A stretch of 64,000 bases of DNA, from assembly GCA_051294375.1 (NCBI GenBank), contig CM119268.1:11195710-11259709 (forward strand), read 5' to 3'. A program made the position numbers and the translations under genes. The number at the start of each line of letters is the position of its first letter. Position 1 is the stretch's first letter. Below are positions 1,511 through 39,414 of this stretch, piece by piece. This DNA is from Paraspadella gotoi. Taxonomy: Eukaryota; Animalia; Chaetognatha. A model generated the notes under the pieces. The model was not told the DNA's origin. It was given only the letters and a program-made list of their open reading frames with translations, and ran no database searches.

Positions 1511-4500
1511 CTTGTCGAGAATGGCGAACTGTTCGTGGAGGGGCGTGAACTTGGCCTCCACTTCCTCCAAGGAGTTGTTCAACTTTTCGTGGAGATCGAT
1601 GCGATCCTGCAGGTCATCCAGAGTTTGAGGCGTCTGGGCCACGCTGGAAAAAAGGCCAAAAAAAGTGAGAAAAACATTTTTAAACCCTCGTTTTATTTCT
1701 GCTAAAATTATATTATATTACTTATACAATATACATAATATCTACTTGAATATCCGAATACTTCGTTACGTAGCTAAAAATTAATTAAAAGAAAATAACA
1801 TGAAATTTGAACCAATAATATGTATTAAATAACAAATATGCAAGCGTTATAAACATTAAGAATAATTATATGTATTTACAACTCAAACTAATAACTGTGA
1901 TCAACATTACACAGAAGAAAAAATATTGACCAAATGACAAAAAAAGAGAAGAATATTATTTAAGAGATTAGTCAACTTCTTCCACCGTCGGTCCATTGAA
2001 GCCGCCTCCGTTCGCTGCCGCATCGCCGGCCGCGTTTCCTGCTCCGCTGTGCGCTCTGCTGTAGATCGGCCTCACCACTTCCTCCACTTCTTTCCTCTTC
2101 TCTTCGAACTCTTCCTTCTCCGCCGAGTGATTCTTGTCGAGCCACTCGACGCAATCCTTGCAGACCCGTTCCACCATCTTCCTCTCTTCCTCGTTGATCT
2201 TGTCCTTGAGTCCCGGTTCGTCGAGGGCGGCCTTGACTCCGAACACGTAGCTCTCGAGGGCGTTCTTGGCGGCGACCCGCTCCCGGATTCTCTCGTCTTC
2301 GGCGGCGTACTTCTCCGCGTCGTTGACCATCCTCTCGATGTCCTCCTTGGAGAGTCGCCCTGTGTCGTTGGCGATGGTGATGTTGTTCTGTTTCCCCGTC
2401 GATNNNNNNNNNNNNNNNNNNNNNNNNNAAAAAAAAAGAGGAGGAGATACTTGCTTTTATGGTCTAACTAATATCGAAACATTTAACAAGTTCTGCACCA
2501 AGATGCTCCTGCTTGATGCAGGGTTCCTCCATCTCCCGAAAATATTCAGTCTCGTCCTCAAGGTTCCAAGTAGAAAGTCTTCCGTCTTGGAAGAGGTGTC
2601 GAACTCCAAACCAACTCGAAGGAAGGATCGCCAGGTGGCCTGAGTGGAAGCCGCCCATCTTTCGCACCGACACTTCCCTGTAAAAATATCAGATAAAACT
2701 AAAACTGAAGTTTGTACTTATAACCATTATAGTGGTGGCGGTATATTCACAATGCCGCCTCACTGTCCATCAATCGTTCAGTCCAAGTCCCATGGTTTCA
2801 CAGGGGGAACGCACCATCCCAGGGCGTTGCGTTCCATCCCAACTACTCTACGTTGGCTAGCGTCCTTGGGGTATCGCGGCCAGCACAGGAGGGTCACTGA
2901 GGCCCGAAAAGCCAACAGTGAGAATGCCCATCCTAATGGGGCAATACAGGCAAACCGACTGTTGTCCATAAATAGGGGATCATTATCAAGAGAAGCATTG
3001 TGCTCTTTTACCTTGGGTTGATAAGGCCTTCTTAGCTGGCTCATTTTTTTCAAGAGCTCAAGGAAGAGAACGTTTCCCAATCGACGGAAGTAGTTCAGAT
3101 GTCATTTTGAACGTCGTTCGGAGCCCATGTTTATTTGAAATTACTTTATAATTTTATATCCTGCGTAACGAATAAATTTTTATCAATGTTACGGTACAGT
3201 TTTATATTTTAAATTGATTTTGTATGAAAAAAAAGGCGAGAATAAGAGGTGAAGGACCTCCGGCCTCATGAATAAAATGTAGTAGAATCCAGTAGCCGCG
3301 AGGTCATTGGGGAAAACCCTCCGTTTAAAATTGAAAAAATTTAAAAATAAAAAGGAAAAAAAATAAAAAAAAAGGAGCCGAAAAGCCGAATGTCAATTTT
3401 TTGACCCGAGAAAACGAAGTTTTTATGGTTCATTTTATTACGAAATCAAAAGTCAGCAACGTTTCCAGGGCCGGGACCGGTTCTACCAGAAAACTCGAAA
3501 AGGTGAATGACCGATACGAAAACTGCGTCGTGGATTTACGGGTATTATTTATTTGATCCAACGCAGGACTTTCGAAACTACGATGCGACGATGCTACGTA
3601 GTATCTGAATTTCCAAAAGTCCGATTTAAAAACAGTTTTCTCTTAGGGTGGTCCTACTATGTCTAAGTCTGTCTCGTCTGACTGACTGACTGACACACCA
3701 GCATCGTACAAATATATGATAAAAAGTTGATATATATTGAATGATAATAGCGATCGTCAGCTCAGATGTTCTAATTTGTTCAACCAATATAAATTAATCA
3801 CTTATTAATAAACAAGCGATTTCAGTGCCAACACGACTGGACAAGTTACTAATTTCAGTAGTGGCGGATCTGACTGTAAGTGCGCCCACGACAGGTGCTT
3901 AGCATTGACAAGCAATGGGGCACGAACCCAAGACCGCTTGGAGGGAAGAGAGCATTCTCCGCTTCTTACGCCATCGGGGGCTTGCGCGGATAAGACCTCA
4001 GGCGGTGGCCGATAGTGAATGCCACACTATCTTGCCAATTACATTTGGACAATAGATAAAGGCTATGGTGGGCCCTCTCGAAAGCCTTTCTCGCAGTCTA
4101 GTTTCAATAACCCCCCGAGTGCTTGGCTTCCCTAACAATGAAGTAGATATAACTAGTAGAGATTTGCACGTCTACGCAAGTTTTGCGCAAAATTTTTTTT
4201 AAAATTACTGTGATCCGGTCAAATTTTTTTAATACAGCGCTTTTTTTCTTTTTTGAATAAAATATTTAGGTTGAGCGGTGAAGATTAATGTGGTTCAGGT
4301 TCGTAGGTTTCCCCTTGAGTAATTCTGCATCGCAATAAAAGAACAACGAGAATCACCAGAGCACTTTTACGGTTTTCACAATTTCACGAAGAAAAAACAC
4401 TAGCATCGTCTCGGAATTCAACCATTTGTGTAGAAAGTTGAACAATATTAATTCCTGTTGAATAATTTTCGTGATTTGGATTTCCGTTCAGGAGCGACTC

Positions 4501-7500
4501 CGTTGCTGGAAATTCCAGCTGATGTGCCGAAGCATGGAACGATCCGCCATGTTGGATATGAACTTCGACCGGTGATTTATTATATTTACTTAGGGCATTT
4601 TTGCTTTTCTCAACAAATTTTTAAATATGATTAAATCTCGATACATATCTATTACACTTTTCACATATCATTTTCCGCTCGCAGCAACCTGCTGGAAACT
4701 GTTTCCAAGAGATTCAATACTGGGAAGGCTTATGTTTCGAAGATCCCCCACTACGGCGCGAAGTTTTAACATCCAAGAAGAGAAGATCTGCGCAATCTGC
4801 GAGAGCATGTATTTGCTTTCGCTGGTGCGAGAGACTAGCAACAGGTCTCTATAGCTTTTTGAAAAAAAATCTTGAGGAAAATTTTGTTTTATAAATGAAT
4901 GGATATAATCATAATCTTTGATCATAACGATGACATAAGCTTTGATCTTCCATTATTACTCCAGCATAGTAATTGGCATTGTGACAAATTTTAGACTTAA
5001 GTTAATCAAAATCTACAGGAAAATGTTCTTTTAAATTAAGTAATTGGTATTTTTAGGACAATTTTTAGAAACAAGTTTTTTGTCCAAATAAATTCATTTC
5101 TCAAACTTGATCTTGTTTCAGAATAATTCGGTGCCCTCTCTCGCAGGAAAGAGGATGTTCAGAAAAAGAATCAGATTCTTGGATAAAAAGATCACGCCGG
5201 TAGGACTCGAATTCACAATCTTTTAAATCTATTAGTAATTTAGAATAGGAAAATAATATTTTTTTTTTATAAATGACGATTTTTTTTTGACATAGTTGTT
5301 ATCAAACATAATTTTTTTTTTTCCACCTCTAATTCAAAAGTAATTTAATTAATAGTAATTGTTAAAAAAAAGTATTTCCGTTTCCAGGCCTGACCAAGCT
5401 AACCTGGGCCCTGCCGGGGGAATCTTCAAGACTACTTTTCATACAGCGAATGTCGACAACAACGGCAGTCTTTCCCAAGGGTAGAAATGCAATTCCTTGA
5501 CGGACTATAATCAATTCCACGCTCTATGGATTGATTTCATAGTTTCGGCTCATTTTTCTTACTTTTTAATTATTATTTTGATATTGATTAAATTGATTGT
5601 TTCGACTCTCTCGTAAATCGAACTATGCTTGATTTTGCAAGGTCCAACTCATCAACGGAATAGTTACAGAGACGGCGAATCAGACGGAGATCGCCAAAGC
5701 ACTGCAAAGAGAATCTCTGAGATTCCTTGGTCAAAATCGATGGGAAGAGGGTTTACGAGACACGGAGTTCGAGGACGATCAAAGTTAAAATCATTTTGAT
5801 TGCTCAATTGATTGATTGATAGATTGAAAAACAGTCGAAAGGAACGATCAAAGTAAATCATTTGATTTGCTCCATTGATTGATTGATATAGATTGAAAAA
5901 AAAGTTTTGTTCATTGATGAATGGTATTATTCGATTGGGAGGAGTGATTGGGATTGTCCTTTTAAAAAGGTCGCAATCGAATCCTCGGATCGCTAAGAAA
6001 AGTCGAAGGCATCCAGCGAGACATCGTCAACACAAATGAACAACATTCGAGGCAAGTAATAATTGGTAAATATTGTATCTTTCCTTCTATTTTGCACATT
6101 ATAATGTAAGGCCCTTCAAATTTGGATACCCTACCTTCAACCTTTTTCGTGCCGATTTTGCAGAACCTTCAAGAACGACCCTTCCGAGGTGCAGGGCCTA
6201 CTGGTACCGGCTACACCAAAAGATGGACCGGATGGTCGAAGAGGCGCTGTGCGCCTGGCAACGTCAAATGGCACTCCAGGAGCTCGCCCAAATGCATCAA
6301 CCGGGGGACGGCAAGTCCGCCACCCAATCCTTTGTTCAATAGTACAAGTCATACTCGAGGACGAAAAGGTTGAGGAAGAGGCGAAGGGGATGGAAGGGGG
6401 GATCGGTGAGGGTGGGTGGGTGAAACTTGAAAGGGCGTGGTGGATTGTTGATAAAAATATCACTGGTTAGATTGTGGGGAAATGGGTAGAGTGAAAGATG
6501 TCAATTTCCTAACAATGAGGAATGGTGTGCCTTTAATTTTGTCATCCGCGTGATGCGTGTTTTGCAAGTAACACTTCCGTTGCCTCGCGGACAAGTTGCA
6601 AAAAAAAAGTCAACTGATATACACTTTTGCCTCCAAACGGATTTCCTCGGTGAGTTGTTCTGAGCAAGGAAAGCTTACAGTTGGGCATGAATTGAAGCAT
6701 GCAATTTCGGTCGAAAACACGTGAATTCGCAGGCTCGCACGCTGTTTTTACTCTCATTTTGCGACAAAAAGTAGATGTTTCTTGGACGCTTGGGTTTGAA
6801 AAATTTTTTTTTAACTTTTTTCCTAGCCGAATCAGCGATAACAGGGGCGCCCAAGACAGAAACGATTGCCAATAGTCAATTTAGTTGATTCGTATAAATT
6901 AGCTTTATTATGTCCTATGTACTATTGTCAAATTACTGTGTGTTATGTTGTTAACAACTCTTACCGTCATAGACGTATGAAAACAGCTTTATAAGAATTG
7001 CAAAAGTAAGAATTTTTTTTATAGTTATATATTGATTGTATTGTCTGCGTAATTTGCGCGAAGTAAATAGCAAGATTACAAAAATACATATTAAATTTAC
7101 CCCGTCCGCAGAGACACTTCATCTGCACCTTTTGTTTGTTGTTTATCGAATAACTAGTAGCTCAACCAAAAGTATAAAGTAAGCGAAAGATTAAAAAAAA
7201 AAATCCGCATCTCACTAAATGTTATATTACTTTTTTAATTAGTAGTTGAATGTGTTATAGTAGTACGTAAAAGAAAGAAAAATGGTTTCGTAAATAATGC
7301 TTAGGTTTTAAAAATATCAAAACGCTCTTTTGTCTCAGGTTGAATTCCGCTCGCCACGCTGAAGAAAATTGGCAGCCATCGTTGCACAACCTGTCATCAG
7401 CTGACTTCGTGCAGTGTCCTTTGTTTCCAGCTTCCCGATCTGCTTACGAGAAGAAAGAGTCAATAAAGAAGTCAGTTTCAGTCCATTTGCTTCCACGACC

Positions 7501-10500
7501 CACAGCCCCCTAACTCAGGCTACCGCAAACCCGGATCAAGGGACCAATGAAAATGAATTGCAATTTGTTTGTTTTTTTTTCGGCAGAGCCCCATCAGCGT
7601 GGTCATGAAAGAGACGAGAAAAGATGAGATCAAAGCGCCATCACGTCGCCATCACGCCACACATATGACGTCGCAGAAAAACGCGTAACACACGAGTCCT
7701 GATAAATTACATACACGGCCTAAGGTCAGCGCTATCTGCTCAATGTGTGAATTTTCTTGTCAGGAGGTCATACGAAGCCCGTCAAGAGTGTGCTCCTGAA
7801 CATAGTAAGAAAAAAAAAAATTTGAAACTTTGTTATATATTTTGAAGGCTCTGAAATGTTTATCGAAATTGTAACTGACCGTGCTTATTACTATACATTG
7901 TGACGTACGTGGCCACTGCAGCATAACACAATAACAAGAAAAAGAGAAGTCTGGTACCTGATAGCGAGAAAAAAAATTTACTTATATTAGGACTAATTAC
8001 GTATAATAAATTTGTCGACCCCACGTCAATGTATTGTAATGTCATATAATATCGCGTCACGTAACGAACGTCCGAGTTCTCACGGAAATTCCCCCTCCCC
8101 CGATCCTCGCGCGCGCGAGTTCTCGAAATACTTGACGACGTGGGACAAGTATCCGCGAAGATTTAGGGAGACAACAAGGATCTCTTCATCAGACGATACG
8201 CGAGGGCATGCAATACCCCCCGTGTCGTCCTTCGACGCAGACACGGCCAGATACTCGGAAGTCCGCCCACAACGTGCAAACGAAGGTTGAAAGCCGATTT
8301 GGGTAATCGATCAGGAAGAGGACAGAATAATTGTGAGTAGTCGACGAGCTTAGACCATTCATGAAATTAGCTTCGGAACGATCGGAGCCTGACTTTAAGT
8401 TTGTCGCAACAATGATAGTCGTCCTACGACATTATGTGAAGAAGTGGTTTAATGGCTTACTATACTTATTTCAAGCCTACGGGCGCCAAATGACCGCGCT
8501 GTTGATAGTAGAAGCGAAATTTAGGGTCACCATTGTAACAAAATTCTGTTTTTTTATTTACGTTGGTTGAGCGGGATCGATGAAAGAAAAACGCGGAGAA
8601 ACGTAAATTCAATAAAGTTAATATTTTCTTCTTTCAACTGACTTTTACATTCTCACTCTTCCGCTATCCAGGAAACGATTCTGGCACATTCAGTTTGTCC
8701 TTCTGGCTGTTGCCCCTCAAGTTCTCCATCTTTGAGTCCACTGTCGCGAGTGCAGACAAAATTCACCATCTCTGCTGCGAGACCTCGCCTCCACAAGCTC
8801 AAACGAACTTCACAAAATACATCCAAACCCAACGCTCACAAGTGGAGACCGTGTCAAGTAGGACGATGGTAAAACTGAACAAAATTAGTTTTTGAGCGGT
8901 TGTATTAGTTGAGGCTTTCTTTTTGTGTTATAACTTTATAAAAGTACATGTACAAAAAAGCAGTCTCGTATGTTAAACAACTCACACATGAATTAATTCT
9001 CGTGATGAGAAAAAGCGAATAAAAGGGAGAAAGATTTTGTCTCCGGGTTGGGATTCATTTTTCCCCCGTCACTAAAATTAAACATTTTTTCATAATAATA
9101 AATGCAATCATTTTAAACCATGTCAAGCTCTATTCTCATCTTTCCTCGTTCGCGAATCCTCGAAAATTAATATTTTGAAGCGCTCTCGAACTTCTCGAAA
9201 CTTCCTAAAATTTTCCTTCCGTTCATTTCTTCGAAAACTTCGAAAGAAGCCAGATCCGAAGAATGGCGATTTTCGCACGTTAGTCCTTCTGTTTCCCGAG
9301 GCTTCGAGATCTTCTCCTATTTCTCGACTCGCCGATAGGGTATAAACTCGCGAATTCGCGACTCTCCACTAAATTTTACCGCAGAAGAAAAATAATCCTA
9401 AATCGACAAAAGAGGCAACGGCTAAAAGCGAACTGAAGCTCTCACCTTCTTGCCCATTAACACATTAAGAAAATTGAATCACCATTTCGAAAAAAAAAAA
9501 CGCGAAAAATTATCGCTAATTTTTCCGACAACTTAAATCAACACCATTGTTAAAATTTTTTAAAAACAGTAACAAAAACGACGACATTAACAACCAACAA
9601 TGAAATCTCCAGCCATCGCATCGACTTGGGGACGACCTACTCCTGCGTGGGCGTCTTCCAACACGGCAAAGTCGAGATCATCGCGAAGATCAAGGGAATC
9701 GGAACGACGCCTTCCTACGTCGCCTTCACGGACTCGGAACGGCTCGTCGGCGACGCTGCCAAAGAACCAGTTCGGCCATGAACCCGACTAACACAGTCCT
9801 TCGACGCCAAGCGACTCATCGGCCGTAAAGTTTGCCGACGACACCGTCCAACGCGACGTCAAACTCTGGCCATTTCAAGTCGTCAACGAAACGGAGGAAA
9901 GCCCCAAATCTCCGTCGAATACAAAGCCGAGCATCGATCCTTTGCTCCTGCAGAGAGATCTCCTCGATGTGTAGACGAAGATGGAAGGGAGACAGCGGGA
10001 GGCCCATACCATCGGACAGCAAGGTTCTCACGGCTGTGGTGACGGTGCCCGCCCCCCTACTTCAACGACTCCGCAGGCGTTTCCAAGCGACGAAAGACGC
10101 CTGGGCGTCATCGCCGGGCCTCAAAGCGTCTCCGCGTGATCAGAACGACCGACGGCGGCGGCGATCGCCTAACGGCACTCGGGACAAGAAAGAGCCCGCC
10201 CGACGATAAGAAACGTCCTCATCTTCATCTCGCCGGCGGAACCTCGACCGTCCTCCGTCCCTCAACCATTGGCAGGGCGGGGTGTTCGGAGGTCAAGGCC
10301 CACCAGCCGGCACACGCATCTCGGCGGCGGAAGACTTCGACGCGCGACTCGTCAAACATCTTCGTCGCCGAAAATTCCAAGCCCGGGAAGAACAAAAAGG
10401 ATCCTGTCGGGCAACAAACGGCCGCGCTAGGCCGGCGCTGAAGGACCCAGCGGCCGAGCGCGCGAAAGCGCACGTCATGTCTTCGTCTGCGCAGGGCGAC

Positions 10501-13500
10501 GGTCCGAGATCGATTCTTTCTTTGAAGGAAGTCGACTTCTATTCCAGCATCCCACTCCGCGCACGGCTTCGAGGAATATGTGCGGCCCCAGGATCTCTTC
10601 CCGCAGCAGCGTTGAGCCGGGTGGAGAAGGGCGCTTCTGTACACCAAGACCTGTCCAAGCGAGACATCCCACGAGTGGTTGTCTCGTCGGCGGCTCCACT
10701 CGGTATCCCCAAGATCCACAAAAATGCTGCAAGAATTTTCAAACGGGAAAGAACTTAACAAATCCATACCAACGACGGGACCAGCGCCGTCGCCTATGGG
10801 GCGCCAGCAGTCAAGCCCGCCATGCTTGACCCCGGCGTCCAAAGACTCCACAGTCCCAAGAGCGTCCTGCTCCTCGACGTGGCGCCGGCTGACGGCTGGG
10901 CATCGAGAACGGCGGGCGGCGTTATGACGCCGCTCATAAAGCGCAACACGACGTGCCGGACCAAACAGACTCAGACCTTCACCACCTACTGCTGACAATC
11001 AACCGCGGCGTCTCCATCCAAGTCTTCCGAAGGAGAATCGCCGCCATGACCAGAGAAACAACCTCCTCGGCAAGGTTCGAACTGAGCGGCGCATCCCTCC
11101 GGCGCCGCGCGGCGTCCCGCAGATCGAAGTCTCCTTCGACGTCGACGCCAACGGAATTCTCAAACGTATCCGGCCAAAGACAAATCGACGTCAACACCAT
11201 CGAGGAGATCTCTTCTGGAGCAAAGGATCGATGCTCGGCTTTGTATTCGACGGAGAGTTTGGGCTTTCCTCCGTCGTTGACGACTTGAAATGGCCAGAGT
11301 TTGACGTCGCGTTGGACGGTGGCGTCGGCAAACTTACGGCCGATGAGTCGCTTGGCGTCGAAGACTGTGTTGGTCGGGTTCATGGCCGACTGGTTCTTGG
11401 CGGCGTCGCCGACGAGCCGTTCCGAGTCCGTGAAGGCGACGTAGGAAGGCGTCGTCCGATTCCCTTGATCGTTGGCGATGATCTCGACTTTGCCGTGTTG
11501 GAAGACGCCCACGCAGGAGTAGGTCGTCCCCAAGTCGATGCCGATGGCTGGAGATTTCATTGTGGTTGTAATGGTCGTCGTTTTTTGTTACTGTTTAAAA
11601 AATTTTAACAATGGTGTGATTTAAGTTGTCGAAAAATTAGGATAATTTTCGCGTTTTTTTTTTTCGGAAAGGGTGAATTCAATTTTCTTAATGCTGTTAA
11701 TGGGCAAGAAGGTGAGAGCTCAGTTCGCTTTTAGCGTTGCTCTTTTGTCGATTTAGATTATTTTTCTTCTCGGTAAAAATTTAAGTGGAGAGTCGCGAAT
11801 TCGCGGAGTTTTTATACCCTATCGGCGAGTCGAGAAATCAGGAGAAGATTCTCGAAGCCTCGGGAAACAGAAAGACTAACGGCGAAAAATCGCCAGTCTT
11901 CGATTGGCTTCTTTCGAAGTTTCGAAGATGAACGAGAAATTTTAAGAAGTTTCGAGAAGTTTCGAGAGCGTTCAAAAATAATTTCGAGGATTCGCGAAAC
12001 GAGAAAGAGAGAATAGGAGTTGACATGGTTTTAAATGATTGCATTATTTATTGTGACAGAGGAAAAAGAATCCCAACCCGAAGACAAAATTCTTCTCGAA
12101 GTTTTATTCGCTTTTTCTCATCACGAGAATTAATTCTGAGTGAGTTGTTCACTATCGACTGCTTTTTTTTTTACATGTACTTTTATAAGTTATAACACAA
12201 AAGAAAGCCTCAACTAATACAACGCTCAAAAACATTTTGTTCAGTTTTACCATCGTCCTACCGACCACGGGTCTCACTGTGAGCGTTGGTTTGGATGTAG
12301 TTGTGAAGTTCGTTGAGCTTGTTGGAGGCGAGTCTCGCAGCAGAGATGTGAATTTGTTCTGCACTCGCGACAGTGGCTCAAGATGGAGAACTTGAGGGGC
12401 GAACAGTCCAGAAGGACAAACTGAATGTGCGAGATCGTTTCCTGGATAGCGGAAGAGTGAGAATGTAAAAGGTCAGTGAAAGAAGAAATCATTACTTTAT
12501 TGAATACGTTTCTCCGGTTTTTCTTCATCGATTCGCTCAACGCACGTAAATAAAAAAACGAATTTTTTCGAATGCCTAAATGTTCGCCTTCTACTATCAA
12601 CAGCGCGGTCATTGGCGCCCGTAGGCTTGAAATAAGTATAGTAAGCATTAAACCACTTCTTCACATATAGTCGTAGGACGACTATCATGTTGCGACAACT
12701 TAAGCTCAGGCTCCGACTCCGAAAGCTAATTCATGAATGGTCTAAGCTCGTCGACTACTCACAATTATTCTGTCTCTTTCCTTGATCGATTACCCAAATC
12801 GGCTTTCAACCTGCGTTTGCACGTTGTTGGCGACTTCCGAGTATCTGGCCGTGTCTGCGTCGAAGGACGACACGGGGGGATTGAGCCTCGCGTATCGTCT
12901 GATGAAGAGATCCTTGTTGATCTCCCAAATCTCGCGATACTTGTCCCACGTCGTCAAGTATTTCTGAGAAATGGGGGAGGATCGGGAGGAGGGGGAATTT
13001 CCGTGAGAACTCGGACGTTCGTTACGTGACGCGATATTATATGACATTACAATACATGACGTGGGGCTCGACAAATTTATGATACGTAATTTTATATTAA
13101 GTAAATTTTTTTTTCTCGCTATCAGTAACATTTTTTTTTTGTCTTTTTTTTTTGGAGAGAACAGTAATAAATGTAATAGTAATAAGGCACGGTCAGTTAC
13201 AATTTTCGATAAACATTTCAGAGCGCTTCAAAATATATAACAAAGTTTTCAAATTTTTTTTTCTTCTATGTTAAAAAACTTTCGTATCACAATGAAAGAA
13301 AATTAAATTGTAAGAACCTTGGCCCTTTTGTTTTTCTCGGCACCTGCAAGTTTTCCGCGTTGTTCTGCATTCCGCCGTTGATGGCGCTTTGGATCTTCAT
13401 CTTTTCGTCGTCTCTTTCGATGACCACGCTGATGGGCTGCGAAAAAAAACAAACAAATTGCAATCATTTTCATTGGTCCCTTGATCCGGGTTGCGAGTTA

Positions 13501-16500
13501 GGGGGTTTTTGGAAGCAAATGGACTGAAACTGACCTCTTTATTGCTCTTTCTTCTCGTCAGCAGATCGGGAAGCCTGGAAACAAAGGACACTGCCGAAGT
13601 CAGCTGATGACAGGTGTTGCCAACGATGGCTGCCAATTTCTTCAGCGTGGGAGCGAATTCAACCTGAGGACAAAGAGCGTTTTGATATTTTTAAAACCTA
13701 AGCATTATTTACGAAACCATTTTTTTTCTTTTTACGTACTACTATAACACATTCAACTACTAATTAAAAAAGTTATAACATTAGTGAGTGCGGGATTTTT
13801 TTTTTTAATCTTCGCTTACCTTTATACTTTTGGTTGAGCTACTTAGTTATTCGATAAACAACAAACAAAAGTGCAGATTGAAGTGTCTCTAGCGGACGGG
13901 TAAATGTTAATATGTATTTTTGTAATCTTGCTATTTACTTCGCGCAAATTACGCAGACATAGTTACAATCAATAATATAACTATAAAAAAAATTCTACTT
14001 TTGCGAAATTCTATAAAGCTGTTTTCATACGTCTATGACGGTAAGAGTTGTTAACCAACAATAACACACAGTTTTGACAATAAGTACATAGGACATAATT
14101 AAGCTAATTTACTACGAATCAACAAATGACTATTGGCAAATACGTTTCTGTCTTTGGCGCCCCTGTATCGCTGATTCGGCTAGGAAAAAAAAGTAAAAAA
14201 AATTTTTCAAACAAAAGGCGTCAGAAAATCTACTTTTTATCGCAAAATGAGAGTAAAAACGCGTGCGAGCGGATTCACGTGTTTTCGACGAAATTGCATG
14301 CTTCAATTCATGCCAACTGTAAGCTTTTTGCTCAGAAAAATCACGGAGAAATCCGTTTGGAGGCAAAAGTGTTATCAGTGAACTTTTTTTTGCAACTTGT
14401 GGAGGCAACGGAAGTGTTATGCAACCACCACGGCATCACGCTGACAAAAATTTTAAAGACACATTCCTCATTGTTAGAAATTGACATCTTTCACTCTACC
14501 CCATTTCCCCACAATCTACCAGGTGATATTTTATCACAATCCACTCACGCCTTTCAAGTTTCAACCCACCCACCCTCAACCCGATCCCCCCTTCCTCCCT
14601 TTCCCCTCTTCCTCACCTTTTCGTCCTCGAGTATGACTTGTACTTTGAACAAAGGATTGGGTGCGGACTTGCCGTCCCCGTTGATGGCTTTGGCGAGCTC
14701 CTGGAGGCTCCATTTGACGTTGAGGCGCAGCGCCTCTTCGACCATCCGGTCCATCTTTTCGGTGTAGCGGTACCAGTAGGCCTGCACCTCGGAAGGGTCG
14801 TTCTTGAAGGTCTGCAAAATGGCACGAAAAGGTTGAAGGTAGGGTATCAAAAATTTGAAGGGCTACATTTAATGTGCAAATAGAAGGAAAGATACAATAT
14901 TACAATATTACTTGCCTCGAATGTTGTTTTCATTTGGTTGACGATGTCTTCGTGGATGCCTTCGACTTTTCTAGCGATCGAGGATCGATGTCGACCTTTA
15001 AAAGGACAATCAATCAATCAATCAATAATACCATTCATCAATGAACAAACTTTTTTTTCAATCTATTATCAATCAATCAATGGCAATCAAATGATTTACT
15101 TTGATCGTCCTCGAACTCCGTTCTCTCGTAAACCCTCTTCCCATCGATTTTGACCAAGAGAATCTCAGAGATTCTCTTGCAGTGCTTGGCGATTTGTCTG
15201 GTTCGCCGTCTTGTAACTATCCGTGATGAGTTGGACCTGCAAAAGCAAGCAATAGTTCGATTTACGAGAAGGTCGAACAATCAATTAATCAATACTCAAA
15301 AATATAATTAATAAAGTAAGAAAAAATGAGCGGAAACATGAAATCAATCCATAGAGTGAATTGATATAATCGCGTCAAGGAATTGCATACCTTGGAAGCG
15401 TGTTGTCGACATTCGCTGATGAAGTAGTCTGAGATTCCCCCGAGAGCCCAGGTTAGCTTTGGTCAGGCCTGGAAACGGAAAAATTTTTAACAATTACTAT
15501 TATTTATTAAGATTACTATTTGAATTAGAGGTGGAAAAAAAAAATTATTTGTTTGATAACAACTATGTCAAAAAAAATCGTCTTTATAAAAAAAATACTT
15601 TATTTTCCTATTCTAAATTACTAAATAGATTAAAAAGATTGTGATTTCGAGTCCTACCGGCGTGAATCTTTTATATCAAGAATCGGATTCTTTCTCTGAA
15701 CAGTCCTCGTTCCTCGGGAGGAGAGGGCACCGATTATTCTGAAACAAGATCAAGTTTGAGAAATGAATTTTTTGGGACAAAAATTGTTCTAAAATTGTCC
15801 TAAATACATATTACTTAATTTAAAAGAAACATTTTCCTGTAGATTTTGATTAACTTAAGTCTAAAATTTGTCACAATTGAATACTATGCTGGAGTAATAA
15901 TGAAGATCAAAGCTTATGTCATAGTTATGATCAAAGATTATGATTATATCCATTCATTTAAAACAATAATTTTCCTCAAAGATTTTTTTCAAAAGCTATA
16001 GAGACCTGTTGTAGTCTCTGACCACGAGCAATACACTCGCAGATTGCGCAGATCTTCTCTCTTGATTATAACTTCTTCCCGCGTAGTGGGGGATCTCGAA
16101 CATAAGCTCTCCCAGTAGTGAATCTCTTGGAACAGTTTCAGCAGGTTGCTGCGAGCGAAAATGATATGTGAAAGTGTAATAGACTATCGTATCGAGATTT
16201 AATCATATTTAAAAAGTTTGTTGAGAAAAGCAAAATGCTAAGTAATATAATAAATCACCGGTCGAAGTTCATATCCAACATGGCGGATCGTTCCATGCTT
16301 CGGCACATCAGTGGAATTTCCAGCAACCGAGTCGGCTCCTGAACGGAAATCCAAATCACGAAATTATTCAAACAGGAATTAATATTGTTCAACTTTTACA
16401 CAAATGTTGAATTCCGAGACGATGCTAGTGTTTTTTTTTCTTCGTGAAATTGTGAAAACCGTAAAGTGCTCTGGTGATTCTTGCGATGACAGAATTACTC

Positions 16501-19500
16501 AAGGGAAACCTACGAACCTGAACCACATTAATTTCTTCACCGTCAACCTAAATATTTTATTCAAAAAAGAAAAAAAGCGCTGATTAAAAAATTTGACCGG
16601 GTCACAGTAATTTTAAAAAAATTTTGCGCAAACTTGCGTAGACGTGCAATCTCTACAAGTTATATCACTTCATTGTTAGGGAAGCCAAGCACTCGGGGGG
16701 TTATTGAACTAGACTGCGAGAAAGGCTTTCGAGAGGGCCCACCATAGCCTATCTATTGTCCAAAGTAATTGGCAAGATAGTGTGGCATTCACTATCGCCA
16801 CCCGCCTGAGTCTATCCGCGCAGCCCCGATGGCGTAAGAGCGAGAATGCTCTCTTCCCTCCAAGCGGTCTTGGGTTCGTGCCCCATTGCTGTCAATGCTA
16901 AGCCACCTGTCGTGGCGCACTACAGTCAGATCCGCCACTACTGAAATTAGTAACTTGTCCAGTCGTGTGGCACTGAAATCGCTTGTTTATTGAATAAGTG
17001 ATTAATTTTTATATTGGTTGAACAAATTATGAACATCTGAGCTGACGATCGCTATTATCATCAATATATATCAACTTTATCATATATTTGTACTGATGTC
17101 TGTGTCAGTCAGTCAGTCAGACGACGACAGACTTAGACATAGTACGGACCACCCTAAGAGAAAACTGTTTTAAACTCGGACTTGGAAATTCAGATACTAC
17201 GTAGCATCGTCGCATCGTAGTTTCGAAAGTCCTGCGTGGATCAAATAAATAATACCCGTAAATCCACGACGCAGTTTTCGTATCGGTCATTCACCTTTCG
17301 AGTTTTCTGTAGAACCGGTCCCGGCCCTGGAAACGTTGCTGACTTTTGATTATCGTAATAAAATGAACCATAAAAACTCGTTTCTCGTCCAATGACATTC
17401 GGCTTTTCGGCTCCTTTTATTATTTCTTTTATTTAAAATCATACCGAGTCACTGACTCGCGGCTACTGGATCTACTACATTTTATTCATGAGGCCGAGGT
17501 CCTTCACCTCTTATTCTCGCCTTTTTTTCATACAAAATCAATTAAACATATAACTGTACCGTAACATTGATAAAAATTTATATTCGTTACGCAGGATCAT
17601 ATAAATTATAAAGTAATTCAAATAAACATGGCTCCGAACGACGTCAAAATACATCTGAACTACTCCGTCGATTTGGAAACGTCTCTTCCTCTGAGCTCTG
17701 AAAAAAATGAGCCAGCTAAGAAAGGCCTTATCAAACCCAAGGTAAAAGAGCACAATGCTTCTCTGAATAAATGATCCTATTATGACAACAGTCGGGTTGC
17801 CTGTGATGCCCATTAGGATGGGCATTCTCACTGTTGGCTTTCGGGGCCTCAGTGACGCCTCCTGTCGCTGGCGCGATTACCCAAGGACGCTTAGCCAACG
17901 TAGAGTAGTTGGGATGGAACGCAACGCCTGGGATGGTGCGTTCCCCCTGTGAACCAATGGGATTGGCTGAACGATGATGGACGTGAGGCGGTGTGAATAT
18001 ACCGCCACACTATAATGGTATAAGTCAAACTTCAGTTTTGTTTTATCTGATATTTTACAGGAAGTGTCGGTCAAAGATGGGCGCTCCACTCAGGCCACCC
18101 TGGACGATCATTCCTTCGAGTTGGTGGAGTTCGACACCTCCTTCAAGACGGAAGACTTCTACTCGGAACCTTCGAGGATCGAGACGGAATATTTTCGGGA
18201 GATGGAGGAATGCATCAAGAGGAGCACTGGTGCAGAACTTGTTAAATGTTTCGACTATTTAGTTAGAAATAAAAGCAAGTTCGAACCGGAGGCTAAAGAT
18301 GGACGAATTGAAGGTAATGAAACGGAAAAATTGGTTTTTGATTGCTATTAGTCAATGCTTGTTATGATGCAAGAAGCCTTTTCCGTTAGTTTATCTATGT
18401 TTTATATTTTTAAAAATATATTAAAATGGAATAATTTTTTAATGTGAAGTTCTTGCAATTTTTTTTTTTTTTTTGATGAAGATGGCAATTAAGGATGTGA
18501 AATAGTTTTAAAATAATCAAAGCAATAAAACCTGACTTAATATTATTTTTCAGAGAACAATATCTGGGCAAAATGATTTTTGTTTCACAACGAATTTTAT
18601 TTTATCATAGAAAACGTACATGTTTCGGCTTTGTACGTTTTCTATGATAAAATAAAATTCGTTGTGAAACAAAAATCATTTTGCCCAAATACATGTAACA
18701 ACGAAAAAGAAAGGTTATTACCACTAGAGAACAATATCATAACCATTTCCTTTTAAATTTTAATAACAGATTACGCTCGAGGAATTCACACGGACCTCCA
18801 CGAAGAAAGCGCTCACGCCCTCTTCTCTTTCTTGACCGGAGATTTGGACGAGAGGTTCCAACGAGGAAGATTCGTCTGCATCAACGCTTGGAGGAACATT
18901 CGCGACGAGCCGCTCGAGAAAAATCATCTCGCCGTCCTTGACGCGAAGTCATTGTCTGGAGGTATCGGCTCAGAGGTAAGGACGTGGAAGTAAGTAAATC
19001 AATGCTTCAATGTAGCGAAGAAGGTTTTGTAAATTTGGGACTTAACCTCCATGACGCTTTGTTTGATCTTTGCAAGAGAAGTCTCTCTCTCTCTCTCTCT
19101 TACACTCTCTTGGCTTGACTTTCGCCGGTACCTAGTTGCCTCTGTTTCATTCCCAATCTCATGTATTACAATTAACATATATCTGTAGTCGGGCATTGCC
19201 TAGGTTCACCCCGCCTATAAGCATGACACCTTCAGTCCTGACCCGGTGGCTCATTGAGTAAAGCTATCAGCTCATGACCACTAGGTGCCGGGTTCAATCC
19301 CAACCCGGTACCTACCCTGCGGGAAGCGTGAGGACGGCCGTAAGCCGCCTTGGGGGCGTGGCAACCCCTCAAGCCTGGTTCCAAGCCCAGGACCCGTTCC
19401 ATGGCTACTAAAGGGGGTTATAGAAGTTACGGATAGTCATCTTAAGCCCACTTAGCGCCTTATCCACATATCTTTCTCTCTGATTGCCCATAAAGTATTA

Positions 19501-22500
19501 TTTTCTGCTTCCACCATCTTCAAAAACTAATCGGATTTTTGAAAGCAAGGTCAAACATTTCCAAACTATTCTCCACACCAGGATTACTTGGAGAATTGCT
19601 TCGGCCACAAATCAATGGAAAAATTCTTCGTGCTGAACGAGAAAAACAGCGCCTCCCACGAATGGCACTATTTCCCGCGCATGCGCAAAGAGGAAGTGCT
19701 TCTCTTCAAACAGTGGGACTCCGACCCGGAGAGGCGCGCCATGACGTGCTTCCACGCCGCCTTCGACGACCCTCGAGTAGCTGGCGACGAAGCGGCCAAG
19801 CCCCCTCGCGAGTCGATCGAAGTGCGCGCCATCGCGTTTTTTCCCGATCACGCGCCCAACACGTGTCCGAAGGTGGAACCGGTTGACGTCGAAGACGCTT
19901 TCGGTTTTAAACGCGGAAGTCCGATTTTTCGGATCGGATGGAGGCATGAGCAAAATAAGTTCTTCGGTCTGTGAAACGTCGAATGCGTCCCGTATAGACG
20001 TTCCGCTTACAAAACGGCGAATTTAAGCAAAAAAACCACTTTTTCCAATATTGTTCAGTTGTTTACGTTACAATATTAATTTAATTTGTACCACGAATAC
20101 AAAATTGGGCTGAACTAAGGATTGGTTAAAATCATCTCCACCTGTTTCTAATGATAACAAAGTACAATTTTTTTCTATATTTAGGGAAAAAAAATCATGT
20201 CCATTTTTTGTCCATTTTCACTTTCGTCTTCTGATTAGAGTGCCAAGGAAAGTTGAGAAAAAATTTTTACTTTGGAAATCCGTTCTTCCTTATCTTCTTT
20301 ACCTCTGGGTTAATTTATTTTCCTTAAATCATTTATAGTTTGCCTATGAATTAATTTTTAAAGTTGACAAGTCAAAAAGTTTCATTTCTGTTTTTTTTAT
20401 CATAATTTGTTAAACGAAATTGTTCAAATGTGGTTTAAATTAACAGAAATATAGGCAATTGAATAAGCTTTTAACACCTATAAAATTATCAAAAAAAAAC
20501 TTTTTTGTTTAGCCACAAATAATTTTTAAAGACGTTTTTTAATTTGTGACTTTTTTGTGACTTGCATTTATTTTTGATAAAGAGAATATTTTTAAAAATA
20601 GTTTTTAAAGGATGAAGTACATACTGACGTTGATTAATCCAAAAAAACCGCATCCTTTTAACCAATGGAAAGCGTCAGGACTATTTTTCTGAGAATCGAC
20701 AGATTTTTGCGGAAAATATTTTCCGCAAAATCTGTCGATTTACTAAATCTGCTAGGCAACCAAAATTGAAATAAAATCTGCGCTACCCCAAAATTTTTTT
20801 TTACTACAGTTCTTTCAAAACTTTTTTATTTGGTCACGTCAGAAAATAAGACAACAAGAGAAAAAGAGAAGTGGAGCGAGAAAGAGTGTGTGAAATAAGA
20901 GGAGCAGGTAGAGGGAGAGGAATTGGATTTGAAAGTAGAGAAAAGGAGAGAGAGACGAAGAGAGAAGAAGAGAAGCAGAGATAAGAAGGAAGAAAAAAAT
21001 AATAAAGTTAAAAAAGCAAAAGAGAGGAAGAGAGAGGAAAGGAGGAGAGAAGGATTGAAGGAGGGAAAGAAAGAGTGTTAGAGAGAGTGACAGAGAGGGA
21101 GAAAGAGAAAAGGGATGAGAGAAGGATTGAAGGAAGGAAAGAGAGAGTGACAGAGAGGAGAAAAAGAAGGAAAAAAAGAAAAAGGGAGAGGAAAAATTAA
21201 AAGATTAAGTGTCATCTTTATCCTGAAGAGTTCTGTGAATCTGATTGACGCCTAAATTCCTATGAGCAATTTTATCTTTAAAAGTTGTGCTTACCATGAA
21301 AAAATCGCATGTACTTCTTTTCTTAAATTAAGCAGATAACGAGATTTGATTGAAGAAATCATGTCTTACCGTATTTGAAGGCATAGAAATTCAACTAAGT
21401 GTGTCTCGATGTTATATAGGAGAAAAGATAACTATAGCCAACCGTTTTTTATAACTGAAGAACGTCCTATATTTATCAGATGGGGTGAAAATAAATGATA
21501 TTGTATATTCGAATTTCAAAACATTAGTCTAAAATACCCGTAAGCGAGGTATACAGCTCTATAACTATCAGCCGAATGTAGTTAATCCGACAAGTATATG
21601 TAATCGAAAGATTGAACATATTGATTTTTTAGCATTGAAAATGCTATTGAAGTAGCATGTTTCCTAATACTTACGAGACTTCGATTCCGAATTTCTGGTG
21701 TATTGAATTCTTGTTTTAAACTTCTTTGTGACCCGAAACTTATGTACTCTCAGCCATTTATGGTGTATTGTTAAAAATTTATTTGTTTGCAAGTAAATTT
21801 TGTGTCGATGATTGTTGTATTACATTTTTTTAAAGTACAAGCAGTCAGGGCCGTCATTTTGAGGTTTATATTCGGTCGAAGTGAAAATAGCCCTGAGGTA
21901 AGCAAGTCCCTGCTCGGTCATATTCCAGCAACTAAGGTTAGAACAAACGTCTAAACGTATTTTACATTGAATTTAAGCATAATTATGGAATTTTTTAAAA
22001 ATATGTCCGGTTTGAGTTTTGTATGGATTTAATTCAATTGGTTTAAAGTTGATTTGTTTTTATATATTTGGAGTTGATTTATTTTTTTTCGATTTGATTT
22101 AAGAAATTAGAACAATAGAAGTTATTTTATAACAGATAAATTTCCTAGAAAGCAAAAATGGGCCCCTTGTTCTTTTGTTCCCCGCCAAAAATAAGCAAAG
22201 CTGAAACCAAGTTCCCGCCAATTTTCTGGTTTTAATTGGATCGTTAAATCGCAAGCGAAGAAAGAATCATATCCCGGATGTAATTGTAAACAAGGGCTCG
22301 TTTGTTATTTTTTTCTTCGTAAGAAAAAGAATAATATCAATCGCAGTACTGAGTTCATACGCAGGTTTTTTTTCTAAAATCCTCCAATTTATCCCTACCC
22401 AGACGATTCTCCCGAACTTACCCTATCCGTCTGCCCGGTCCACTCGTTGAAGGTCTTGCGGATGAACTCTTCCAAGGCCGTTGAGAGTTGGTGATATTGC

Positions 22501-37324: not shown

Positions 37325-37692
37325 TTAAACATACTTATATTCAACCTTTTACGCTGATGAAACTGATCTCTTAAACGGATGGGACGAACTGTCAAACAAG
37401 CGGGAAGTGACTCTGCGTCTGTTACAAAAAAAAAAGCAGTTGTTGGCTTTTCGCTCAAAAATCATCGACTTGTAGCCCAAAAGCGGCGACCTTCAAGGTT
37501 CAAGAAGTTCTCTCTCTCGCTCTCTCTGTTTATTTCTTTTTCTTTATTCATTTAGAAACAATAATAAGCAATTTAAATCTGCAGCTACACTATCTTATGA
37601 TCATATTTTTGTAAATAACTTTGTTTTTTATAACTTTATGAGCTTCATAAATTAAATAATATGGTGGACTAAAATTCACCAACCGTTCATCA

Positions 37693-37850
37693 GCGGCCAT
37701 CGGTGCCGGAGGCAAGTCATTCGCCTCCCAACCCAAAGGTCCGGGGTTCTAGCCTGGTGGCCGCCTAGCAGTTAAGAGGGATGGGGCGCTTAACCCGCCT
37801 GTAACATGGTGTTACAGCCTGATCCAAAGCTCAGGGACTGCTTATTTTGA
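37693..37850 (+). mobile_element. Second tRNA-derived SINE-like element carrying a twister ribozyme
   Basis: 72-nt head closed by gcggccatc/ggtggccgc, B-box-like GGTTCTAGCC (~37745), then the twister fold. Confidence 0.65.
37767..37842 (+). ncRNA. Type-P5 twister ribozyme (predicted cleavage U37791/A37792)
   Basis: P5 agcagtt/gactgct; aa; P2' gagg; GA-UGG; P1 ggcgct; UAA; P2 ccc; GCC; P3 tgtaaca/tgttaca; g; P4 cctga/tcagg; L4 U-CCA-AAGC. The T1 pseudoknot is CCA/UGG. Confidence 0.8.
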
Positions 37851-38475
37851 ACGGTTCTGTCATTAACACTTATCAATAATTACTGTCTCTTCAATAAAAT
37901 TATTAACTCTCACGTTAAGAAAATATTAATCATATGCGGAACAGTCGCGACCTTAAACCTAAATTGCACAACTCGGTGAAATTCACGGCTTTCTCCCCCT
38001 CTTCTTCATCTCGCGTTTCACTTTTCGTAAAAGTAGATGAAATGAATCATGACTCAGCATTTTTTCTGTGAAGAATATTCTTTTTTGGCAACAGTTATTT
38101 TTGCTTTCTGAATTTTTAGCTTTGAATTGTTTTGTATTTTTCAAACAAAGACTTAAAATTAAAAAGTTTGACCAATCTCAAGCCCAATTTCTGCAGGTCT
38201 CGACCTCGGCAAAACGTCAAAGCACTTCTTTGAGAGACTATCTCTCAGCCTTCAGCGCGAGAATGGGGACCTGCTTGCTTCCCGAAGTCCCGTGATTGAG
38301 TTGCCTCCTCATTTGACTTTGCCCGATCATCTCTTCTTTTTTCTAAATTTCTTCATTTTTGGTTCACTTTTATTGTTAACATATAAAAAGTTTTTTGAAA
38401 CCATTCCCGCAATTATTTGTTTGCTCTATTTTTTTAAAAAAATGGTCTACTTGAATTTCTTGACAGATCTTGAAA

Positions 38476-39414
38476 ATGTCGTCTTCATCCTCATCCTCCA
38501 TCGACCTTTGCCAATTTTGCTCGATTCAATTCGACGAAGAGGAAAACGAAGAAGACAAAATACAGCATAGGATTTTAGAATGCGGACAGACCATAAAAAA
38601 GTCGAAAAAATGTAATTCGGATTTCCGCTTATCGGTCGTCCAATTCAACGTCGGAGGCCTTCGGAAACGACGAGAGGCGTTAGAGCGATTTTTGAATGGA
38701 CGCGACGACGTCATCGTCTCGTTAAACGGGACACGGTATACCGGGGAAGATGACACCGACGAAGATAGCGATGACGATGGCGACGATAGCGACGATAGCG
38801 ACGAAAGCGAATCGCCCGGTTTCGAGTCGATTCCTGGGTACGAACTGTACAAAGACGACTTCGACGAAGAGATCACCGGCCTCGCAGGCGGCGTCGCTTT
38901 TTTAGTGCCGGAGAATTTCAAAGTGAAGAAAACAACGAAGGACCGCGGGCTGGATAATCTAAGAATCGTTGTATCCTTGCCTTGCGGACATCGTTTAAAC
39001 CTGATGTCCTATTATAATCACCCACGAAGCGGGGAAGCCGGTCTGCCCTCTATTAGGGAAATCAACGAAAACGCCATCCGAAAGTTCTTCTATAAAAAGC
39101 CCACTCCAGGACGGCATAGATCCAAAGGGGCCACCGTTAATCTGCTTGTGGGAGACCTCAACGCCAACCACGAGATGTTCGGCTCCTCAAAAACGGACAC
39201 CACCGGCAGAGATTTGGTCGAAATCCTAGACGACCAAAACCTCTGCTGCCTTAACGACGGAACGCCCACTCGCGGAAAAAACGTACTCGACTTCGCCATC
39301 ACCGACCGAAATTCGGTACGCCACGTGGCGTCTTGCCGCGTCCTTCGTCATATGAAGGACAAAAAAAACCAAAAATCGGATCATCGTCCCTTAGAAATCC
39401 AATTGGTATTCTAG
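38476..39414 (+). CDS. Stand-alone endonuclease/exonuclease/phosphatase (non-LTR APE-like) domain protein
   Basis: SVVQFNVGGL, GGVAFLV, SYYNHP, LLVGDLNANH..FGS....GRDL, LNDGTPTR...VLDFAI, SDHRPL then stop. Uninterrupted ORF with no RT downstream. Confidence 0.85.
   Translation: MSSSSSSSIDLCQFCSIQFDEEENEEDKIQHRILECGQTIKKSKKCNSDFRLSVVQFNVGGLRKRREALERFLNGRDDVIVSLNGTRYTGEDDTDEDSDDDGDDSDDSDESESPGFESIPGYELYKDDFDEEITGLAGGVAFLVPENFKVKKTTKDRGLDNLRIVVSLPCGHRLNLMSYYNHPRSGEAGLPSIREINENAIRKFFYKKPTPGRHRSKGATVNLLVGDLNANHEMFGSSKTDTTGRDLVEILDDQNLCCLNDGTPTRGKNVLDFAITDRNSVRHVASCRVLRHMKDKKNQKSDHRPLEIQLVF

Follow-up and report, generated by a model that had tools for sequence, protein, structure and literature searches.

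Two classes of short mobile elements are closest to the repeat considered here. In Helenus elements (TRIMp3), a short LTR encloses a tRNA-like part whose boxes A and B read TRGCY and GGTTC, respectively (Kojima, 2024; PMC10886601). As far as the available part of that paper tells, LTRs of animal Helenus elements are bounded by TG...CA, come with 4-bp duplications and show a link to Gypsy (PMC10886601); solo LTRs are common, with up to thousands of copies, and full TRIMs with internal PBS/PPT regions are given for Helenus-2 of two Synergus gall wasps. The same part mentions no ribozyme for Helenus, the word "ribozyme" occurring in a reference title only. The second class comprises plant LTR retrozymes, for which a circle model was put forward and circles were observed, according to the accessible text of Cervera et al. 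(2016; PMC4918200). Retrozymes with LTRs are described from plants only, with hammerheads. Those of animals are presented as devoid of LTRs in the available portions of reviews (including PMC7761336), one of which alludes to insect elements, as yet unpublished, that carry hammerheads of type III (PMC7761336). From the same kind of partial sources, hammerheads are recorded in plant LTRs and in animal non-LTR repeats, and twisters at the 5′ ends of RTE elements (PMC8501958, PMC7761336, bioRxiv 10.64898/2026.07.22.740005). In the literature searched, to which most subscription papers and Repbase do not belong, neither twisters within LTRs, TRIMs or SINEs nor natural twisters acting as dimers were found described. 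Here, we compare with these systems a high-copy repeat from the chaetognath Paraspadella gotoi, found in a stretch of 64,000 nucleotides (assembly GCA_051294375.1, contig CM119268.1, positions 11,195,710 to 11,259,709) referred to below as the window. PRP19 of this genome is 67-74% identical to that of named bilaterians, as judged from the best 120 of 753 matches, in keeping with an animal. A preliminary description had read the locus as a tRNA-headed SINE fused to a type-P5 twister ribozyme in the sense strand of an intron.

Borders and anatomy of the intronic repeat

The repeat, designated element A, is 285 bp long (19184..19468, plus strand), has TG...CA termini and is read here as a solo LTR. 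It lies in sense orientation within the GT-AG intron 3 (18976..19581, +) of a CmcJ/NvfI-family gene composed of four exons and 321 codons (17628-17741, 18061-18313, 18770-18975, and 19582-19974, all +). Exons 2-4 match the CmcJ/NvfI family NF041278 in order, which agrees with the initial placement of the repeat inside a CmcJ-like gene; Pfam gave no match for the exons. The family of this oxidoreductase gene (17628-19974) is defined in microbes, and its intron-bearing representative in an animal may have been acquired horizontally; paralogues are seen in both DNA and RNA contigs. Intron 1 of the gene contains a GC-rich insert with several short inverted repeats (17770-18030), probably another mobile element.

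The borders of element A were defined by loose ends of public contigs aligned to the locus, taken from five runs of the same organism (X1, X2, X5, X6, and X9). Contigs enter unrelated sequence before 19184 in 126, 20, 22, 14, and 24 cases, and behind 19468 in 69, 14, 11, 8, and 13 cases, respectively, both borders being fixed in 5/5 runs examined. In X1 contigs, summed depth amounts to 1.0-2.1 million across the element versus about 210 in single-copy flanks, a ratio of about 5,000-10,000-fold, which is read only as "thousands" of copies because summed contig depth is no true copy number. Contigs from runs of two other organisms (X10, X11) do not cover element A. With such depth and fixed borders, the proposed attribution to mobile repeats with many copies holds. 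Identical 4-bp target-site duplications adjoin the element at 19180..19183 and 19469..19472. Four TG...CA-plus-4-mer candidates can be found in intron 3, one of which alone coincides with the read-defined borders 19184/19468; the duplication evidence comes from this single insertion, the only one where it is readable.

The part resembling tRNA occupies 19240..19312 (+), has boxes A and B at 19247-19258 and 19291-19301, respectively, and is predicted to act as an internal Pol III promoter. Its fold is more stable than 200 of 200 shuffled sequences (z -5.0), and ARAGORN assigns no tRNA gene to this segment. Thus, element A possesses the internal boxes A and B characteristic of SINEs and Helenus, and the Pol III-type head of the preliminary description is retained as a predicted promoter. 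Its designation as a SINE is not. The borders are fixed, with the left one preceding the tRNA-like part by 56 bp; the element ends in TG...CA and is flanked by a 4-bp duplication; and neither the sequence at the locus nor the run contigs contain a tail, A-rich or of simple repeats, behind the fixed end at 19468; because of this combination we consider element A not to be SINE-like. Thus, among the signs of mobility proposed for inspection, high copy number (by contig depth) and target duplication (in one insertion) were found and the tail was not. Element A is probably an element of LTR type, and likely a solo LTR of a non-autonomous Helenus-type retrotransposon.

According to this reading, the LTR begins with a U3-like part (19184..19239, +), located upstream of the predicted Pol III start, covered at repeat-level depth and having a presumed role, and ends with a U5-like part (19398..19468, +). 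The termini share a perfect inverted repeat of 3 bp and none longer. Pairing between U3- and U5-like parts is not significant (254/2000 shuffles as stable), the fold of the whole LTR has z -0.98, and a run of four T is absent from the element. Contigs break in high-copy repeats, and within this range neither PBS nor PPT was seen in consensus letters of the loose ends, and neither a two-LTR copy nor a tandem joint was seen around the element. Of 119 joints in one set of contigs and 41 in another, 15 each were listed, and none of those listed connects 19468 to 19184. Secondary loose ends appear in run contigs of the family at 19204, 19307, 19406, and 19416; they mark subfamilies in which the twister is the same but the T-arm varies and the U5-like part is another one.

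Other repeats of the window deserve mention on their own. A TG...CA-like stretch of about 350 bp at 16674-17025 (+) contains a tRNA-like part mid-way (boxes 16830-16882) and has a duplicate near 3780-4137 (-); no 4-6 bp duplication and no ribozyme match by our own descriptors were detected for 16674-17025, which is possibly a third Helenus-like family. The large inverted duplication of 2449-9977 versus 11189-18280 (87-89% identity, many small indels in one copy) adjoins a run of N at 2404-2428 and may be an assembly artefact of noisy long reads; HSP70-like pieces were noted with it near 10200-11600.

A variant twister fold in two diverged families

The tRNA-like part is followed by a fold at 19319..19397 (+) corresponding to a twister of type P5 with P3. 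Strands of P5 are located at 19319-23 and 19393-97, the conserved GA at 19330-31, UAA at 19341-43 and the L4 landmark U-NNN-AAGC at 19379-86, while pseudoknots T1 (19332-34/19380-82) and T2 (19347-48/19385-86) are formed by Watson-Crick pairs. P3 and P4 have 8 and 5 bp, P2 has 3 bp with one bulged base, and the core is completed by GC in L2. Stems P2/P4 with termini in P5, which define type P5, are present both here and in the second unit described below. Thus, the P5-open order and all landmarks named in the preliminary description were recovered, including the predicted cut between U19341 and A19342, for which UAA is in place, and G19330, the first base of the conserved GA, suggested there for a control mutant G19330A. 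The canonical loop-closed P1 stem is absent, and its place is taken by a palindromic segment (19334..19341, +) with a 6-nt core at 19335-19340 and 8 nt with flanks, which would provide just 1-2 bp in a monomer and is a candidate dimer interface. No hammerhead core was found within element A.

Rfam recognizes the fold only weakly. The Twister-P5 model does match element A (16.8 bits, E 0.81), but its gathering score of 37.6 is not reached, and no Rfam family attains gathering score in the whole window. Our own twister descriptor, built of known landmarks and consistent with the Rfam consensus, matches two places in the real window and gave 4 matches in 2839 block-shuffled windows; because of this ratio, the twister fold is well beyond chance. 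Scanning for relatives with exact patterns yielded 0 and 2 matches in metagenomes, 5 and 4 in viral contigs, and 1 in prokaryote genomes; all 12 loci were rejected as relatives, since the stems are missing there and the score with model R1 does not exceed 12.4 bits.

The second place marked by the descriptor, unit B (37693-37841), has the same order of parts: a diverged tRNA-like cloverleaf with more degenerate boxes (37693..37764, +) precedes a type-P5 twister (37768..37841, +) with a bulged P2 like that of element A and a self-complementary 6-nt P1 at 37785-37790. Directly after the twister there is a run of four T (37845, +), and both parts are enclosed in a perfect 9-bp inverted repeat (37681-37689/37848-37856) as stable as which were only 8 of 2000 shuffles of 37681..37856. 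The borders are less evident, with none of seven TG...CA-plus-duplication candidates being convincing, and unit B may be SINE-like. About 600 bp downstream, a stand-alone ORF of AP-endonuclease type (PF14529) is located at 38464-39414 (+). Neither blastn (against element A) nor Rfam twister models (at E up to 10) gave a match for unit B. A covariance model derived from element A alone found it with 38.1 bits (E about 8e-7 by rough calibration), the next match having 10.8 bits.

All 29 modelled pairs, drawn from these same two sequences and including three pairs of the P1 palindrome, are kept in both units: 14 are identical, 2 differ by one-sided and 13 by two-sided changes, and 8 of the latter 13 fall outside P3 (two each in P5, T1 and P1, one each in P2 and P4). 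All five pairs of T1 and T2 are Watson-Crick in both units, with two of three T1 pairs changed on both sides. Even the oddities are common, namely the 3-bp bulged P2 and the 6-nt self-complementary P1, in which the central dinucleotide is swapped. At the level of sequence comparison, the twister fold is under structural constraint, as indicated by compensatory changes between the two families. Variation inside family A adds to the picture: 7/7 of the twister variants listed (all but four rows of the table) and 6/6 variants from three further DNA runs and X9 keep the model, being confined to the loop of P3, the bulge and sites where wobble pairing is preserved, at 71 model-keeping changes among 237 possible single ones. 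The resulting p ranges from 2e-4 up to about 0.06 for the most cautious count (transitions only, bulge site dropped). The bulge register of P2 was chosen after the variant table had been viewed and was later shown independently by unit B. A degenerate copy of family A with both P1 CpGs changed was rejected as an example of covariation, CpG decay being a sufficient explanation.

The available parts of two studies on assayed twisters are pertinent here. P1 is dispensable and flaws in P1/P2 are tolerated in the assayed ribozymes, all of type P1 (PMC5408937, PMC11662667), and loss of activity is caused mainly by defects in pseudoknots or catalytic bases (PMC11662667). Since P1 is reportedly dispensable, element A is considered as a twister variant, and we regard it as highly probable that its fold is a genuine twister, predicted to be active. 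Judging by contig depth and model scores, a sub-threshold variant, apparently existing in thousands of copies, would have been missed by the Rfam threshold. The opposite view, that catalysis was lost in a twister-derived fold kept as a structural or packaging signal, could refer to the Rfam score below gathering, the missing canonical P1, the 3-bp P2 and the competing hairpins predicted below; we consider it very unlikely, as each of the two families retains its catalytic G and A, its two pseudoknots and its L4, and it is mainly defects in pseudoknots or catalytic bases that inactivate assayed twisters (PMC11662667, available part).

Predicted folding and possible ways of mobilization

With pseudoknots and Mg2+ not counted, predictions for the monomer of element A favour by about 14 kcal/mol an inactive hairpin (-34.3 kcal/mol), in which the P1 segment pairs with the P2/L2 strand, over the twister (-20.4 kcal/mol), and a similar misfold is predicted for the monomer of unit B (-26.8 versus -14.0 kcal/mol, pseudoknots not counted). 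Two copies of element A folded together without constraints reach -80.7 kcal/mol as compared with 2 x -34.3, and their best fold is a strand-swapped dimer containing P5, palindromic P1, P3 and P4 with P2 shifted; the best two-copy fold of unit B is not twister-like. On these predictions, twisters of element A possibly cut as a pair; a precedent is given by hammerheads that owe dimeric cutting to a short palindromic helix (PMC6765202, PMC7229834, accessible text). As 216 of 4096 possible hexamers are self-complementary and only the central pair of P1 is informative once the hairpin is given, the sequence evidence for a twister dimer is modest.

The assumption made earlier that the repeat could also cut the pre-mRNA of its host gene appears doubtful, because the solo copy is predicted to misfold and because X9, presumably an RNA run, has coverage over exons 3 and 4 and none over two bins of intron 3 outside the repeat, as expected for spliced mRNA. 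X9 contigs contain element A at high summed depth; since they show neither level, strand nor ends, they are no evidence on its expression or cleavage. A lone intronic copy would cut poorly, and this would explain its tolerance in a sense intron.

In analogy with the model for plant retrozymes, the following cycle may be proposed, all steps of which, from Pol III start to integration, are inferred and fit that model. Pol III would begin transcription of a full copy at the tRNA-like part located in the 5′ LTR and, meeting no T-run, would continue across the internal region with PBS and PPT until the 3′ LTR is reached. Cleavage at U/AA by the twisters of the two LTRs, which possibly act as a strand-swapped pair held together by the palindromic P1, would then set free one unit-length RNA with 5′-OH and cyclic-phosphate ends, which a host ligase such as RtcB could close into a circle. 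A Gypsy-type reverse transcriptase, passing the circle more than once, would rebuild both LTRs, and a Gypsy-type integrase would insert the product with a 4-bp duplication. Solo copies like element A might originate from LTR-LTR recombination or from short cDNAs. If the twister works as a dimer only, it would fire when both LTRs share one transcript and solo intronic copies would stay silent, and such dimer cutting, if true, would explain how self-cutting RNA survives in sense introns. That element A is a Helenus-type solo LTR working as a retrozyme, with the predicted twister in place of the plant hammerhead, seems to us about evenly poised between right and wrong. The wider proposal of Pol III-driven animal LTR retrozymes with a swappable ribozyme slot following the tRNA-type promoter, occupied by a twister in element A and by a hammerhead in gall wasps, together with the first natural twister cutting as a strand-swapped P1-palindrome dimer and solo copies remaining silent, is offered tentatively, as a possibility less probable than its negation. 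Unit B, where a run of four T comes after the twister and a clear pair of TG...CA and duplication is wanting, would testify against the retrozyme model, and so would the low Rfam score, the predicted misfold of the monomers, the single readable duplication and, more weakly since contigs break in repeats, the failure to see any two-LTR copy, PBS or PPT in the contigs. If the retrozyme model is true, eukaryotic twisters would acquire a concrete role.

The same LTR features would be expected for an ordinary Helenus cycle, in which a TRIM with a tRNA promoter moves through linear RNA with terminal redundancy and the twister either trims the 3′ end instead of a T-run or is a passenger. Most Helenus LTRs examined carry no ribozyme, no T-run is present in element A at the very place where cleavage could generate the 3′ end, and misfolding as predicted might protect the 5′ copy from being cut. 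Nevertheless, the redundant head would be lost if the 5′ LTR were cut, and, as LTRs are identical, one-sided cutting needs an extra switch, while a mere passenger would hardly keep its core across two diverged families; we estimate this cycle as unlikely. A further scheme, which includes SINE origin, assumes that a Pol III unit was copied by an enzyme of a LINE or a Penelope-like element, that the twister was derived from an element of this sort, and that TG...CA and the 4-bp duplication are coincidental. It might find support in the twisters at 5′ ends of RTE elements (PMC8501958, PMC7761336, as far as accessible), in the non-LTR, Penelope-linked nature of described animal retrozymes, and in the resemblance of unit B to a head with a twister and a T-run. 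It is distinctly unlikely for element A, both ends of which are fixed in 5/5 runs, with no tail or tandem array seen and the 5′ end lying 56 bp upstream of the promoter part. Ginger elements are DNA transposons with TG...CA ends and 4-bp duplications. A non-autonomous DNA transposon bearing the tRNA-twister cassette as cargo, with which the fixed ends, the high copy number, the absence of an internal region in contigs and the 9-bp inverted repeat around unit B would agree, is nonetheless most improbable, given that the perfect terminal inverted repeat of element A has 3 bp only and that constraint on an RNA-level fold is hardly explained by transposition at the level of DNA.

Comparison with described systems

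With respect to the ribozyme, the closest reference is Rfam RF02684 (twister type P5), which shares with element A P2, P4, the optional P3, the open P5, T1, T2, GA, UAA and L4. In contrast to this family, P1 of both element A and unit B is reduced to a 6-nt palindrome and P2 to 3 bp with a bulge, and the first remains below the gathering score and the second is missed. Schistosome Sm-alpha-type repeats, named as an analogy in the preliminary description, resemble element A in the order of a Pol III promoter and a ribozyme, and dimeric hammerheads of newt, axolotl and Penelope set a precedent for cutting as dimers via a short palindromic helix (PMC6765202, PMC7229834, both by their accessible parts). 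These repeats differ from element A in having a hammerhead, a tandem non-LTR arrangement and no TG...CA ends.

Plant LTR retrozymes have in common with element A the location of the ribozyme in an LTR of roughly 300 bp, the 4-bp duplication and the existence of solo LTRs, and their modelled Gypsy-type mobilization through a circle parallels the cycle proposed above. Retrozymes have a self-cleaving ribozyme in each LTR, and for element A the predicted twister fold is present in the single LTR seen; the hammerhead of type III, typical of retrozymes, is replaced here by a twister fold, and the available part of the plant study mentions no promoter of tRNA type (PMC4918200).

Helenus/TRIMp3 is similar in that a short LTR with TG...CA ends contains boxes A and B, and also in the 4-bp duplication and high copy number, and differs in that element A has a twister after the tRNA-like part, no T-run and an internal region not found in contigs. 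In the accessible portion of the Helenus supplement, the commonest L4-type 7-mers occur in 35 places, none of them in twister context (line breaks may hide matches). In the same supplement, Helenus-2_SyUm-LTR and Helenus-2_SyJa-LTR contain, by eye, what looks like a complete hammerhead of type III, immediately behind the tRNA-like part (PMC10886601). The order of a U3-like part, a tRNA-like part, a ribozyme-like fold and a U5-like part is the same as in element A, the difference being the hammerhead in place of the twister and the known internal regions. Moreover, a 15-mer behind the Synergus hammerhead matches 19451-19465 in the U5-like part of element A with 2 mismatches and is the sole window match at up to 3 mismatches, with a chance of about 0.003 allowing for the choice of the 15-mer. 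With their apparent hammerheads, the two Synergus LTRs would represent animal LTR retrozymes that have been published under a different designation, and a twister in the tRNA-bearing LTR of element A, if true, would join TRIMp3 and retrozymes, which are so far described separately.
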